Source: Alphaproteobacteria bacterium (GTDB taxonomy: Bacteria; Pseudomonadota; Alphaproteobacteria; JAUHZC01). Taken from it: 64,000 nt of DNA. A program made the translations under genes and the position numbers. How positions within the stretch are numbered: position 1 is the first letter of the stretch; every line of letters starts with the position of its first letter. Where the stretch lies: the NCBI GenBank assembly GCA_030425805.1, contig JAUHZC010000002.1:159020-223019 (forward strand). Direction: 5' to 3'. Shown one piece after another: positions 18,316 to 23,831 of the stretch. The notes below the pieces were generated by a model, which was not told the origin of the DNA, searched no databases, and worked only from the letters and a program-made list of their open reading frames with translations.

Positions 18316-18471
18316 GGCTTCAAGACTCTAAAGCACTCCACTATCCACTGCAGAAAAACGTGAGGCTTTAAAGGCCTGATGATTATATTTGTCAAAATTA
18401 ACAGATTTTCCATCTTAAAAAAATATTGAAATACAAAAAAAAATATATATTTTATTTGTAAATATTTATTT

Positions 18472-20442
18472 ATGACAATGAGATCGATATTATTTTTTAT
18501 ATTTCTTTTTACATCATACACAGCGCATAGTGCTGCTGCAGCTACCATGCCTGATGAAGTCGCTACACCTGATCAGGCGCAGGCGGTTATGCAGGCTAGA
18601 CAAAGCATAGAACAAGCTATTCAGCTCCAAGGCTACTTGATAGATTTTCATGAAGAGCTCCTTGCACTTTGCGAACAGGGAAAGGAAAGGCTTGCAGCAG
18701 AACTGGCAGGAGGAGGAGTGGGAACTGCTGAATCTCTTTCAAAAAGTATTCTCTCAGCTAAAGAGATACAGAGAAATCTGAGAGGTAAATTAACAAACCT
18801 CGATCTCCTTGTGAACCCACCCGAAGGCACTACAGAAGAACTTCTAGAAGAATATCAAGCGAAGGCAGCACTATTTTTCTCTGTCATATGTCTTGATAGC
18901 TTCCGTCATTCTCTTGCTCTTGATATTAAAGAGCTTGAAGCAAGCAGAGGAAAAAAATGGCTAGTACCAGCGTCAACCGATTCTATTGTAAATTTACACT
19001 GTATTTTTGACAATATTTTTAATTTAAAATTTAGCAAGAGGACTGTAGCAGCTTTATACACTACAAAAGCTTTATTTTACATTCTAAAAGCGAACTATTG
19101 TTATCTTCCTGAAGAATACAAAGGAAAGGAATTTGGAAAGGCCACTACTGTAAAAGAGTGGCACGACACTATAAGGCATAAAGGTTCACCAGACGAATGT
19201 CAGCGCGTACTTGTCATGCGTCAGGCTCTTTTGAAAGAATCTTTCGATAGTATTCTTAGAGACAACCCAGAGCTCGAATGCTTTCTTGAAGACAGGGATA
19301 ACGAAGTACCTCCCCCAGGAGATAAACTTCTGTTGGCATCAGCCACGTTACCTACGTCAGCAGGAAGGCTGGTCGCCAGAAAGGTAGCTCTTTCTACACA
19401 AGATCTGTTGATGAATACCCATAAAACAGCAGAAGCCTTTTTTGCAGATGAACCACAATCCCCGGAAACATACGAAGCATGGCAGGTTGCTCTTGCTGGT
19501 ACAGCCTTTGAGCTCTGTGGTTCACGCGCTGAAGGAGCATCAGGAGGAGCTCGTGCAGGAAGATTTTCAAGAGGAAAAGGAAAAGGAAGAGGGAGGGGAA
19601 AGAAAAAAGGCAAAGGTAGAAAAGGAGCAGCACCTCGACATGTTTTCGTCCTGCCAAAACTGCTTCTAGATGCAGGTTTTTTACCAGAGCGCCCAGAAGC
19701 AGAATTGGTAGAGCGCGCGGAGGCTTTCCTCATGGGAGACATTCCTCACCTCCACAAAACTCCGGAGGAGCGGGAAGCCGAGGAGGAAGCTGAAAGAGAG
19801 GCTGCATGGGCAGAGGATATGCGTGAAGCAATGCGCATAAACCAAGAATTTTGGGAAGCATGCCGAGAACGGGAAGCAGCAAGAGCTGCAGCTGCGGCAG
19901 AAGCTGACGATGAAGAAGCAGGTGGCGGTGCCGCCGCTCCCAGAGATGAGAGGGCAAGCGCAGGTGCTGGTGCCTCAGCTGCTGCTTCTGCTCCTAGAAG
20001 AAGGGGCCCTGCGGCGTCTGCCTCTGCTTCTGCTTCTGACCCAAGAAGAAGCGCGGCGGCAGCTGCCGGAGATGATGACGAAGAAGCTGATGGAGCAGAG
20101 ACCCCTGACAGCGGCGAAAAGCCTCTCTTAAGCGAAGCTCCTGGCCCTATACAAGATCTTGCATTTTTTGCCCTGGGCACCCGCACAGCATTTGTAAAAA
20201 GGCGAATTCTGGTTGGAGCACTTAAATCACTCGCAACGCATACAGGGGGGAAATTTGATCTCGGCCGTGCTGGCACACGATCTGCCTTCACTCACCCAGA
20301 CCTTAGGGAAGGTGAAAAAATACATCCCCATTTACCCCATGGTGGTGGGGAACATGCCTGTATTAGAGGGAGTGACAATATATATGCACGGTTGCTACGA
20401 AGATTTTACAAGATTGACGTCACGTTCGTCCATGGCGCCTGA
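18472..20442 (+). CDS. hypothetical secreted protein with low-complexity Ala/Glu/Arg/Gly-rich C-terminal half
   Basis: 656 aa. Signal peptide MTMRSILFFIFLFTSYTAHSAAAA. Internal GKGKGRGRGKKKGKGRKG and poly-Ala/Ser/Asp/Glu tracts. Preceded by a 150-bp AT-rich leader. Its GC-rich codon runs contrast with the flanking DNA. Confidence 0.6.
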   Translation: MTMRSILFFIFLFTSYTAHSAAAATMPDEVATPDQAQAVMQARQSIEQAIQLQGYLIDFHEELLALCEQGKERLAAELAGGGVGTAESLSKSILSAKEIQRNLRGKLTNLDLLVNPPEGTTEELLEEYQAKAALFFSVICLDSFRHSLALDIKELEASRGKKWLVPASTDSIVNLHCIFDNIFNLKFSKRTVAALYTTKALFYILKANYCYLPEEYKGKEFGKATTVKEWHDTIRHKGSPDECQRVLVMRQALLKESFDSILRDNPELECFLEDRDNEVPPPGDKLLLASATLPTSAGRLVARKVALSTQDLLMNTHKTAEAFFADEPQSPETYEAWQVALAGTAFELCGSRAEGASGGARAGRFSRGKGKGRGRGKKKGKGRKGAAPRHVFVLPKLLLDAGFLPERPEAELVERAEAFLMGDIPHLHKTPEEREAEEEAEREAAWAEDMREAMRINQEFWEACREREAARAAAAAEADDEEAGGGAAAPRDERASAGAGASAAASAPRRRGPAASASASASDPRRSAAAAAGDDDEEADGAETPDSGEKPLLSEAPGPIQDLAFFALGTRTAFVKRRILVGALKSLATHTGGKFDLGRAGTRSAFTHPDLREGEKIHPHLPHGGGEHACIRGSDNIYARLLRRFYKIDVTFVHGA

Positions 20443-20504
20443 AACGTTAAGGCTTCCTTAACTTTTATCCGAAAGCATATTCCTATAATTATAGGGAGCC
20501 CTTC

Positions 20505-20867
20505 GTGCGAATTTTGACTTTAATTTCAGCTATTTTTCTTTCTTCCGAACAATTATGGGGCGCTAGCGATCCACTCTATGAAGAGCGTTCAAGGCTCTAC
20601 AACGCAGCAGCACATGAGGTTTTAGATAAAATTGGCCTCCGCCTCTTTGAAGATGATACTGCTGAGCAGCTTGCGCATATATTAGCGAACACTGTTGAGT
20701 TTGAAGCTCAATGCTCCTGTAGTACTTTTCCTGAAACCCTTCCTTCATCTGCTCTCGAGGGATTCAAAGCAGAAATCGAGGCTTATCTCACAACGCTTTT
20801 TCCTCCCGCTCCGGTGGCAGCTCCAGTTGCTACAGGCATGATTGAGGAAAGTAAAGAAGCGGAGTAA
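20505..20867 (+). CDS. small hypothetical secreted protein
   Basis: 120 aa. Signal peptide MRILTLISAIFLSSEQLWGA. 62 bp downstream of the 656-aa gene on the same strand. Confidence 0.45.
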   Translation: MRILTLISAIFLSSEQLWGASDPLYEERSRLYNAAAHEVLDKIGLRLFEDDTAEQLAHILANTVEFEAQCSCSTFPETLPSSALEGFKAEIEAYLTTLFPPAPVAAPVATGMIEESKEAE

Positions 20868-20913
20868 TTTTTTAAGATATTGCTATTCCAGGCCTGATGG
20901 GATCCAGCATCTT

Positions 20914-20990
20914 GTGGATCGCCGCGCCCTTTCAGGGCTCGCGATGACTGTAAGGAGGTCATTGCGAGGAGCGGAGCATTGCTGCAATCC
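20914..20990. repeat. dispersed intergenic repeat (CGCGATGAC...GTCAYTGCGAGGARCGRAGC family)
   Basis: TGGATCGCCGCGCCCTTTCAGGGCTCGCGATGAC at 20914-20949 is the reverse complement of 1181-1214 with 1 mismatch. The following GTAAGGAGGTCATTGCGAGGAGCGGAGCATTGCTGCAATCC matches the reverse complement of 50185-50245. Confidence 0.55.
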
Positions 20991-20997
20991 ACACACC

Positions 20998-22801: not shown

Positions 22802-22912
22802 TTTTTTTCCTCTCTTGTCGTCGTTGTAAAGTATCTGGTTACCATAGGGTCAAATACTTTATGTCCCTTATATGGTACTTTTTTTATTTTTTTCAATGAG
22901 ACCCAAATATCT

Positions 22913-22941
22913 ATAAAAAAAAGGGGCCGAGGCCCCTTTCT
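22913..22941 (-). terminator. rho-independent terminator
   Basis: AAGGGGCCGAGGCCCCTT hairpin. On the minus strand it is followed by a T8 run. Lies just downstream of the gene ending at 22950. Confidence 0.6.
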
Positions 22942-22949
22942 ACATTTGA

Positions 22950-23681
22950 TTAAAACTCATCATCATCTGGGTGCTGAGCCTGTTGAGGGGTTTGACATCC
23001 TCTTTCCGACAAAGGATATTTCACTTTGCTGCGGGGTCTTTTTGAGGGCTCTTGAATATGATGCCGTTGAACAAGTATAGACTCTCCGGGCCGGCCTCTT
23101 TTTCCAACAAGAAGAAGATCTTTATCTGTTGTAGGAGATCCAGCAAGAACCTGTCTTGGCGGAGCAGAAAAATCCACTCCGTGCCATGATACAGCCGCAG
23201 CTGCAGCGCTAGAAGAGGAAGAAGAAGGCTGAGGTACTGCTGGCCTTGTCCTTCTTCTGGGAGGTTTTGAATAAACTTCCGTGGCAAGAGCAGCAGCGAA
23301 AGCTGCAGAAGAAGATGATGAGGATGGTGCTGTAGGCATTCTTCTTGGCTCAGGTCTGTAGGCACGGGCTGCAGTGGCGGCAGCAGCAGCTTCTTGGGCT
23401 TCACGAGCCTGCTCAAAGTTTTCCCCTTCATCATGCCCACGTTTCATGGGTTCGCTATTACTTTTTCCGACTGGTTGGGCAAGAGCCAAGGGTTCTGAAA
23501 ATCTGTGGGAACCTTCAGCAGGCTCACTCCTCACACTCCCAGTCTCTGGGCTTTCTGCAGTAGCAATTCCAGAATGATCAGTTCCTGTCTCCCACCCCTC
23601 TGATTCTGAAGCTTCTGCAGCTGAAAAGAGAGGAACAGTCATCAAAACAGACAGAACAAATAAAATATTTTCTTTTTTCAT
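22950..23681 (-). CDS. hypothetical secreted low-complexity (poly-Ser/Ala) protein
   Basis: Signal peptide MKKENILFVLSVLMTVPLFSAA. The start was chosen at the second Met. Runs SSSSSSAAFAAA and SSSSSSAAAAAV. Acidic C-terminus. Confidence 0.5.
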   Translation of the reverse strand: MKKENILFVLSVLMTVPLFSAAEASESEGWETGTDHSGIATAESPETGSVRSEPAEGSHRFSEPLALAQPVGKSNSEPMKRGHDEGENFEQAREAQEAAAAATAARAYRPEPRRMPTAPSSSSSSAAFAAALATEVYSKPPRRRTRPAVPQPSSSSSSAAAAAVSWHGVDFSAPPRQVLAGSPTTDKDLLLVGKRGRPGESILVQRHHIQEPSKRPRSKVKYPLSERGCQTPQQAQHPDDDEF

Positions 23682-23779
23682 AAAACAAACCATTTTTATT
23701 AAAAATAATTTGTTTTTTTATTTTTACAACAATTAAACTTTTAATGAATTTTTATAAATACTTAAAATGCTATTACAAT

Positions 23780-23806
23780 AAAAAAAGGGGGCCGAAGCCC
23801 CCCTTT
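23780..23806 (-). terminator. rho-independent terminator downstream of hppA
   Basis: GGGGGCCGAAGCCCCC hairpin plus T7 on the minus strand. Nearly identical to the 22913-22941 module. Confidence 0.6.
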
Positions 23807-23831
23807 CTAAAAACGCAGATTCAAAAGAATC

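Follow-up and report, generated by a model that had tools for sequence, protein, structure and literature searches.

The interval between atpC and hppA in an alphaproteobacterium is probably a patchwork of independent transcription units

Does a run of non-housekeeping genes lying between two core loci amount to one acquired element, or to several independent ones? We investigated this question for the interval between atpC and hppA, the latter encoding an H+-pyrophosphatase, in a stretch of 64,000 nucleotides (the window) from contig JAUHZC010000002.1 of assembly GCA_030425805.1. The source, an uncultured alphaproteobacterium, is probably host-associated. A sequence-only reading had described the interval as an accessory island coding for secreted or regulatory proteins, led by AT-rich spacers, bounded by near-identical terminator hairpins, and suggestive in composition and content of a horizontally acquired or rapidly evolving effector locus. 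The list of open reading frames (ORFs) and a Pfam scan confirmed the five ORFs, here named g1 to g5. The interval was found to consist of four transcription units on two strands, with g3 and g4 overlapping by 17 nt. We conclude that the space separating the atp operon from hppA is probably filled by four independent units that form a patchwork, not by one element; the lineage-specific, accessory and non-housekeeping nature of its content is supported. The finding as a whole is an ordinary one, typical for the genome of this bacterium.

As we picture the interval, its first unit would comprise g1 and g2, lineage-specific genes with Sec-type signal peptides that would be transcribed from the AT-rich leader, and whose products are predicted to reach at least the periplasm or the cell surface. 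The second would be a palindromic repeat, resembling repetitive extragenic palindromic elements and miniature inverted-repeat transposable elements (REP/MITE), in the gap between the convergent genes g2 and g3. The pair g4-g3 would form the third, a self-contained regulatory module, and g5 the fourth, encoding a presumably exported, largely disordered Ser/Ala-rich orphan with its own leader and terminator. The orphans, in turn, would belong to a class of exported proteins, evolving fast and found throughout the genome, whose genes are scattered among housekeeping operons. Feature coordinates are collected in Table 1.

Composition had been taken as a sign of acquisition, and for GC this did not hold up. 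The G+C content (GC) of the block is 0.456, the same as that of the window (0.456), which counts against the horizontal acquisition of one genomic island at the atpC-hppA junction. Such an island would be in keeping with a whole-block dinucleotide delta* that is the highest of 117 windows; the deviation, however, is due to g1 (with g2) and weakly to g5. The genes g3 and g4 appear native, with GC at third codon positions (GC3) of 0.44 and 0.47, codon bias of 0.285 and 0.229, and a dinucleotide delta* z of −0.8. Pfam, PHROGs, tRNA and repeat scans detected neither an integrase nor a transposase at the block, no tRNA next to it and no direct repeats around it; the only tRNA in the window lies at 50279-50355.

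The boundaries proposed for the block fared no better. The two hairpins do not enclose it, but bracket g5 alone, because they terminate g5 and hppA. The g5 hairpin, AAAGGGGCC-UCGG-CCCCUUU followed by a U run (22920-22939, minus strand), folds with z = −3.85 against shuffled sequence, and the hppA hairpin, AAAGGGGGGC-UUCG-GCCCCCUUU followed by a U run (23784-23806, minus strand), with z = −4.68. A scan of the window for perfect-stem terminators returned at least five candidates, including these two among the three strongest. For the atp operon no intrinsic terminator was found, the 85 nt after atpC folding like shuffled sequence (z = −0.43). The AT-rich leaders were confirmed, with GC of 0.263 (18316-18471) and 0.232 (23694-23831); the intergenic median is 0.37, and of the 27 intergenic segments in the window these are the third and second poorest in GC. 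No Shine-Dalgarno sequence precedes g1 or g5. Leaders of high AT content and paired hairpins are no signs of an island boundary at this locus; the hairpins are two ordinary terminators around a single gene.

Genomic context was compared with that in relatives. In a scan of GTDB with hppA, 80 loci with 61–74% identity were examined among the matches listed, and in none of them did atp genes or block genes lie within 10 kb of hppA. A metagenome scan with atpC gave no match, and one with atpG yielded one useful relative, the 206-kb contig L088 (Ga0155521_138), with identities of 81% for atpD, 71% for atpA, 75% for hppA and 32% for atpC. There, hppA and atpH share a strand, with hppA 5 kb upstream; between the two lie genes for RNase E/G, a DUF192 protein and a TLC ATP/ADP translocase. 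Its atpC is followed by a gene for a 131-aa signal-peptide orphan, an OmpA-family gene (pal-like), tolB, a sigma-70-family gene (rpoH-like) and a pseudouridine synthase gene (rluD-like). The five block genes are absent from L088, none of them standing next to its atp operon or hppA. Together with the self-match-only result for g1 and the lack of a close homologue of g3 described below, this bears out the lineage-specific, non-housekeeping content that had been proposed. The shared synteny among relatives that had been named as a refuting outcome for the sequence-only reading was not observed in this relative. The atpC-hppA junction is neither conserved nor ancestral. The translocase gene of L088 (6042-7559; Pfam E = 1e-181) is immediately upstream of the atp operon and suggests an energy-parasitic intracellular lifestyle of the lineage.

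The absence of all five genes near atp or hppA, both in the nearest relative and in the 80 other hppA loci, would also fit insertion of an island, as would the occurrence of g3 and g4 families on plasmids of other intracellular bacteria. Like the genomic or effector islands of intracellular bacteria (e.g. Legionella), the block is a non-housekeeping, lineage-specific run between core genes with AT-rich upstream regions. Unlike them, it shows no shift in GC, lacks a mobility gene and is not bounded by a tRNA or direct repeat; it is not one unit, carries no recognisable effector domain, and its gene class is dispersed over the window. The non-ancestral adjacency of atpC and hppA, with hppA upstream of atpH on the same strand in the relative, is a further point against insertion between two ancestral neighbours. 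A single acquired island thus appears very improbable. Of the sequence-only reading, the ORFs, the leaders and the repeat stood as observations, as did the lineage-specific content, while the bounding hairpins, the compositional argument as judged by GC, and the one acquired island did not.

Several findings weigh against a patchwork of resident units. Taken together, g1 and g2 have a dinucleotide delta* of 117 (z = 3.1), in the top 1.2% of size-matched windows, and the codon bias of g1 (0.36) is high for its length, so g1 could conceivably be of foreign origin. The core gene hppA is more deviant than g1 and g2 (z = 4.2), and delta* therefore does not identify foreign DNA here. Only one intergenic segment of the window exceeds the two leaders in AT content. 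Because the g3 and g4 families are patchy in Legionellales, Rickettsiales and similar metagenome-assembled genomes (MAGs), and are sometimes plasmid-borne, an old horizontal transfer of the g4-g3 module is plausible. The nearest relative found, L088 (atpD 81%), is too distant to date gene gain, and the export of g1, g2, g3 and g5 is judged by a hydrophobicity heuristic only. We nevertheless regard four independent units as the probable reading of the interval.

Table 1. Positions of the features of the atpC-hppA interval and of predicted exported orphans elsewhere in the window
Feature	Position	Strand	Basis and remarks
atpC	17887-18315	+	ORF list and Pfam scan
AT-rich spacer after atpC, presumed g1 promoter/leader	18316-18471	+	GC 0.263
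g1, 656 aa	18472-20442	+	ORF list
g2, 120 aa	20505-20867	+	ORF list; GTG start, GGGAG 6 nt upstream
Dispersed repeat copy	20906-20993	no strand	Sequence comparison, folding
g3, 283 aa, DUF2608/HAD-superfamily-like	20998-21849	-	Pfam
g4, 322 aa, MerR family regulator of the TipA/Mta/SkgA class	21833-22801	-	Pfam, profile, model
MerR-type promoter/operator of g4-g3	22823-22853	-	Sequence pattern
Intrinsic terminator of g5	22920-22939	-	Hairpin and U run
g5, 247 aa, Ser/Ala-rich	22950-23693	-	ORF list; start at 23681 (243 aa) more likely
AT-rich spacer with hppA terminator and presumed g5 promoter/leader	23694-23831	-	GC 0.232
hppA (H+-pyrophosphatase)	23832-25937	-	ORF list and Pfam scan
Exported orphan outside block	1253-2926		Heuristic and Pfam
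Exported orphan outside block	7007-8305		Heuristic and Pfam
Exported orphan outside block	11186-13333		Heuristic and Pfam
Exported orphan outside block	26415-26999		Heuristic and Pfam
Exported orphan outside block	50517-52493		Heuristic and Pfam
Exported orphan outside block	53417-57028		Heuristic and Pfam
Exported orphan outside block	57552-58277		Heuristic and Pfam
Exported orphan outside block	62046-63947		Heuristic and Pfam

The most useful concrete result concerns g4, the regulator of the third unit, whose conserved MerR-type self-promoter drives an unusual cargo. Its assignment as a MerR regulator was upheld by a match to Pfam MerR_1 (E = 7e-14). The protein consists of an N-terminal winged helix-turn-helix and coiled coil, followed by an all-helical C-terminal domain probably related to TipAS/AlbA. 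It belongs to a family of 544 full-length homologues of ~315 aa with 35–41% identity, from sources that include the Alphaproteobacteria bacterium 16-39-46 MAG, Tatlockia and gammaproteobacterial MAGs. A profile built from 42 sequences of this family matched MtaN (3e-29), SkgA (2e-23) and TipA (8e-21), and also a Listeria MerR-like protein, and its residues 137-251 matched AlbA, a TipAS-like drug binder (6e-8). Against Pfam TipAS, g4 scored 19.5 bits, below the curated threshold of 23.8, and in Foldseek it matched AlbA with only E = 0.06. The AlphaFold model of g4 had a predicted local distance difference test (pLDDT) score of 87.7; its top Foldseek matches were MtaN, TipAN and BmrR, with a template modelling score (TM-score) of 0.71–0.74 to MtaN, normalised to the target. 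Searches against PADLOC and PHROGs gave generic MerR helix-turn-helix matches only.

The promoter of g4 contains a -35 element TTGACC (22853-22848), a 19-nt spacer CTATGGTAACCAGATACTT and a -10 element TACAAC (22828-22823), and ends ~20 nt before the start codon; the spacer holds the dyad CTATGGTAACCAGAT. The arrangement TTGAC(C/T)-N19-TA(T/C)nnn, with the dyad CTATAGTTACTATAT within N19, was kept in seven of seven family promoters, namely that of g4 and those of six homologues from other organisms, which are carried by a conjugative plasmid of Legionella longbeachae and by five further contigs. No second copy of this operator was found in the 64-kb window. MerR-type promoters are typified by a 19-bp spacer with a dyad at its centre, and the presence of such a spacer here makes it very probable that g4, once it has bound a ligand, distorts the DNA and thereby activates the operon to which it belongs. 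In the proposed mechanism, g4 would bind the dyad within the over-long 19-bp spacer of its own promoter, and a small-molecule or xenobiotic ligand held in the TipAS-like domain would lead to untwisting of the DNA, switching on g4 together with the overlapping g3. Both genes have a good Shine-Dalgarno sequence, g3 having its own AGGAG.

In its N-terminal domain, which is 46–48% identical to MtaN by structural alignment, and in the dyad-bearing 19-bp-spacer promoter directly upstream of its own gene, g4 resembles the TipAL/Mta/SkgA class. It differs from that class in being longer (322 aa), with extra C-terminal helices, and in the distribution of its family, which is found mainly in Legionellales-like and Holosporales-like MAGs. 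The co-transcribed gene, which encodes a predicted exported DUF2608 protein, also sets it apart. At five other loci, neighbours of g4 homologues included genes for acetyltransferases, APH-type kinases, ABC-type ATPases, an ABC or MATE exporter, an RPE65-family protein, and a serine hydrolase with a nucleotidyltransferase. DUF2608 was present at none of the six loci inspected (one of which ends just after the regulator at a contig end), and the pairing of a g4-type regulator with g3 was seen only here.

The partner, g3, is the second gene of the g4-g3 operon and had been described as a secreted HAD-like hydrolase. Its family assignment was substantiated by a full-length match to Pfam DUF2608 (PF11019) with E = 1.8e-25 and 90.3 bits (cut-off, 22.6), with HAD motif I as FDVDFT (residues 55-60) and motif IV as LIDD (residues 222-225). 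A word-indexed search of 5.8 billion clusters revealed no close homologue. The only retrievable relative, 26% identical over the full length, is annotated as a hypothetical protein and is encoded just downstream of traG and traD on plasmid pPCS201 of Candidatus Megaera (Megaira) polyxenophila; its FDIDLT and LVDD align with the two motifs of g3. We found no solved structure and no paper for DUF2608. The DxDxT motif I and the DD motif are shared with the HAD superfamily, while g3 differs from other DUF2608/HAD proteins in being very divergent and in carrying an N-terminal signal-peptide-like segment. We presume that g3 is an exported HAD-type phosphatase.

The claim that the other proteins are secreted agreed with a hydrophobic N-terminal segment, without a later transmembrane segment, in g1, g2 and g5 as in g3. 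This call is a hydrophobicity heuristic that takes the best 10-residue window in the first 20 residues, which scored 2.3–2.8 in the four proteins. No match to g1, g2 or g5 was found in Pfam, NCBIfam, PHROGs, PADLOC or plasmids, and for g1 the word-indexed search of 5.8 billion clusters and an exhaustive HMMER search of 1.84 billion representative proteins returned self-matches alone. Behind its signal-peptide-like N-terminus, g1 has an N-terminal half predicted to be helical, then the Lys/Arg/Gly tract GKGKGRGRGKKKGKGRKG, low-complexity sequence that is acidic and rich in Ala/Ser, and finally ~100 aa of C-terminal segment; 30% of its residues are of low complexity. The C-terminus (GTRSAFTHP...LPHGGG...LLRRF) was considered as a HicA-like candidate, and this was rejected: its 105 aa had no Pfam match at a nominal E limit of 10, at which the HMMER filters drop most matches above E ~0.1. 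The gap of 62 nt between g1 and g2 contains a weak hairpin only (20446-20462), and g2 is probably co-transcribed with g1. The monocistronic g5 is about half low-complexity Ser/Ala/Pro/Glu; the Logan gene call starts at 23681 (MKKENILF...; 243 aa), versus the 247-aa ORF. GC3 is 0.33 in g1, 0.34 in g2 and 0.29 in g5, compared with ~0.44 in housekeeping genes.

That g1 and/or g5 are non-functional, as decaying remnants or chance ORFs in low-complexity DNA, could account for their lack of homologues and of a Shine-Dalgarno sequence, for long antisense ORFs through their low-complexity parts, and for a single-sequence AlphaFold model of g1 that is unusable (pLDDT 43). An open frame of 656 codons is nevertheless very unlikely by chance at 46% GC, and the GC of the first, second and third codon positions shows a coding-like periodicity (GC1 > GC2 > GC3). 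Both genes encode signal-peptide-like N-termini, g5 has its own AT-rich leader and strong terminator, and independent Logan contigs gave an identical assembly. We therefore consider it highly unlikely that these are not functional genes.

Proteins of this kind were not confined to the block. By the same heuristic, signal-peptide orphans without a Pfam domain made up 11 of the ~52 ORFs in the window, eight of them outside the block. GC3 is 0.31–0.37 in seven of these eight and 0.46 in the remaining one (7007-8305). Like g1 and g5, five of the eight have an upstream region of low GC (0.16–0.26) and no Shine-Dalgarno sequence. BLASTP revealed no paralogy among the exported orphans of the window. 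The features that drew attention to the block describe a dispersed gene class, not a locus: about one-fifth of the window genes are such exported orphans, most with low GC3 and many with AT-rich leaders devoid of a Shine-Dalgarno sequence.

Seven very AT-rich leaders (GC 0.15–0.26) of exported orphan genes, none with a Shine-Dalgarno sequence, were located in the window, upstream of 1253-2926, 18472, 23681, 50547, 53429, 57552-58256 and 62055, and this shared property may mean that these genes are expressed or silenced in the same way. Other observations were made on individual members of the class. The orphan at 50517-52493 (658 aa, 61% low complexity) contains 45-nt tandem repeats at 51588-51812, with an encoded motif like DRYYDDRRDPLPPRD. 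The 1203-aa orphan at 53417-57028, which has no Pfam domain, contains repeated segments at 53556-53627, 53655-53726 and 55941-56012, and further ones were noted at 53314-53365 and 54536-54587. The orphan at 57552-58277 is flanked by the two copies of a 281-nt direct duplication (57107-57387 and 58357-58637; 97% identity) that copies the 3' end of a glutamyl-tRNA synthetase-like gene (58357-59775); the duplicated copy gives rise to an ORF of 134 aa (57107-57511) that ends in 93 residues with 96% identity to the C-terminus of the synthetase. A 21-nt stretch of g1 (19917-19937) is 95% identical to one in the exported 194-aa orphan beyond hppA (26966-26986), both encoding AGGGAAA, which is probably a low-complexity coincidence. 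The window also encodes, at 29098-32403 and with a low local GC of 0.39, a STAND-type NTPase of ~1100 aa that combines NB-ARC with TPR domains. NB-ARC/TPR architecture is common in protist symbionts.

Could the block instead be a host-directed effector locus, with g1, g2, g5 and perhaps g3 acting in a eukaryotic host and evolving fast under host pressure? The disordered, low-complexity regions of the orphans would suit such a role, and the Lys/Arg/Gly tract of g1, for example, could bind nucleic acids or direct the protein to the nucleus. The bacterium is likely to be host-associated; its nearest relative has a TLC ATP/ADP translocase gene beside the atp operon. The window itself encodes an NB-ARC/TPR protein. 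Relatives of g3 and g4 occur in Legionellales that have Dot/Icm genes, and next to traG and traD on the Candidatus Megaera plasmid. On the other side, Pfam and NCBIfam revealed no eukaryote-like or known effector domain, a Sec signal peptide points to the periplasm or surface and not to the usual type IV route, and no secretion-system gene was seen among the ORFs examined in the 64-kb window. The spread of the gene class over the window, moreover, leaves nothing special about the locus. No test made here supports an effector role, and an effector locus is on balance unlikely. More doubtful still is the full version of this view, in which the uncultured alphaproteobacterium would be intracellular and g1, g2 and g5 would be novel effectors of no known family, aimed at the host, with g1 acting on host nucleic acids or the nucleus, and the MerR-controlled exported DUF2608 phosphatase would be host- or stress-induced. 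Export to at least the periplasm or surface, as part of the patchwork described above, is what we propose for these proteins.

The second unit, for which the sequence-only reading had given a repeat copy at 20914-20990, was located at slightly wider limits in the gap where g2 and g3 converge. Its module A (20916-20949) recurs with one mismatch at 1181-1214 (minus strand). Module B reads GCGATGAC-N-GTCATTGCGAG...GCAATCC, and a variant of its core, GCGATGAC-N-GTCAYTGCGAG, is found at 50206-50232 (minus strand). All three copies (1181-1214, 20906-20993 and 50206-50232) are intergenic. The repeat folds as a compound hairpin of −46.7 kcal/mol, a modest advantage over shuffled sequence (z = −2.2). 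Two independent Logan short-read contigs, covering the left and right halves of the block, end inside it at ~20925-20941, as expected for a multi-copy repeat. No Rfam family was assigned, a scan of the whole window matching tRNA-Asp only, and the repeat was absent from the other loci fetched for comparison.

The repeat at 20906-20993 behaves as a REP/MITE-type element. Its small size, modular and palindromic build, intergenic position, multiple copies and tendency to break short-read assemblies are shared with such elements of bacterial genomes; it differs from descriptions of them in having no Rfam entry and no associated transposase seen. The convergent gap would be the usual tolerated position for such repeats, where it may double as a transcription stop. 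A copy of its module also lies in a 280-nt intergenic segment at 973-1252 (GC 0.50), which is dense in differing palindromic modules, e.g. CATTCCGGGCCCTGACCCGGAATC, CCCCGGATTTGATCCGGGG and CATTCCGGGTTTAACCCGGAATCCACACA; several of these end in the motif AATCCACACA, also found in the block repeat, and the segment resembles a repeat graveyard or hotspot.

For the regulator family, these observations describe a subfamily of TipA/Mta-like MerR proteins of ~315 aa that is well populated, has a strongly conserved self-promoter and occurs in unrelated intracellular bacteria. The coupling of such a regulator to DUF2608, unique to this locus among those inspected, provides a testable handle on an uncharacterised domain family. 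For the bacterium itself, the dispersed class of exported orphans would constitute a natural candidate list for surface or host-interaction proteins.

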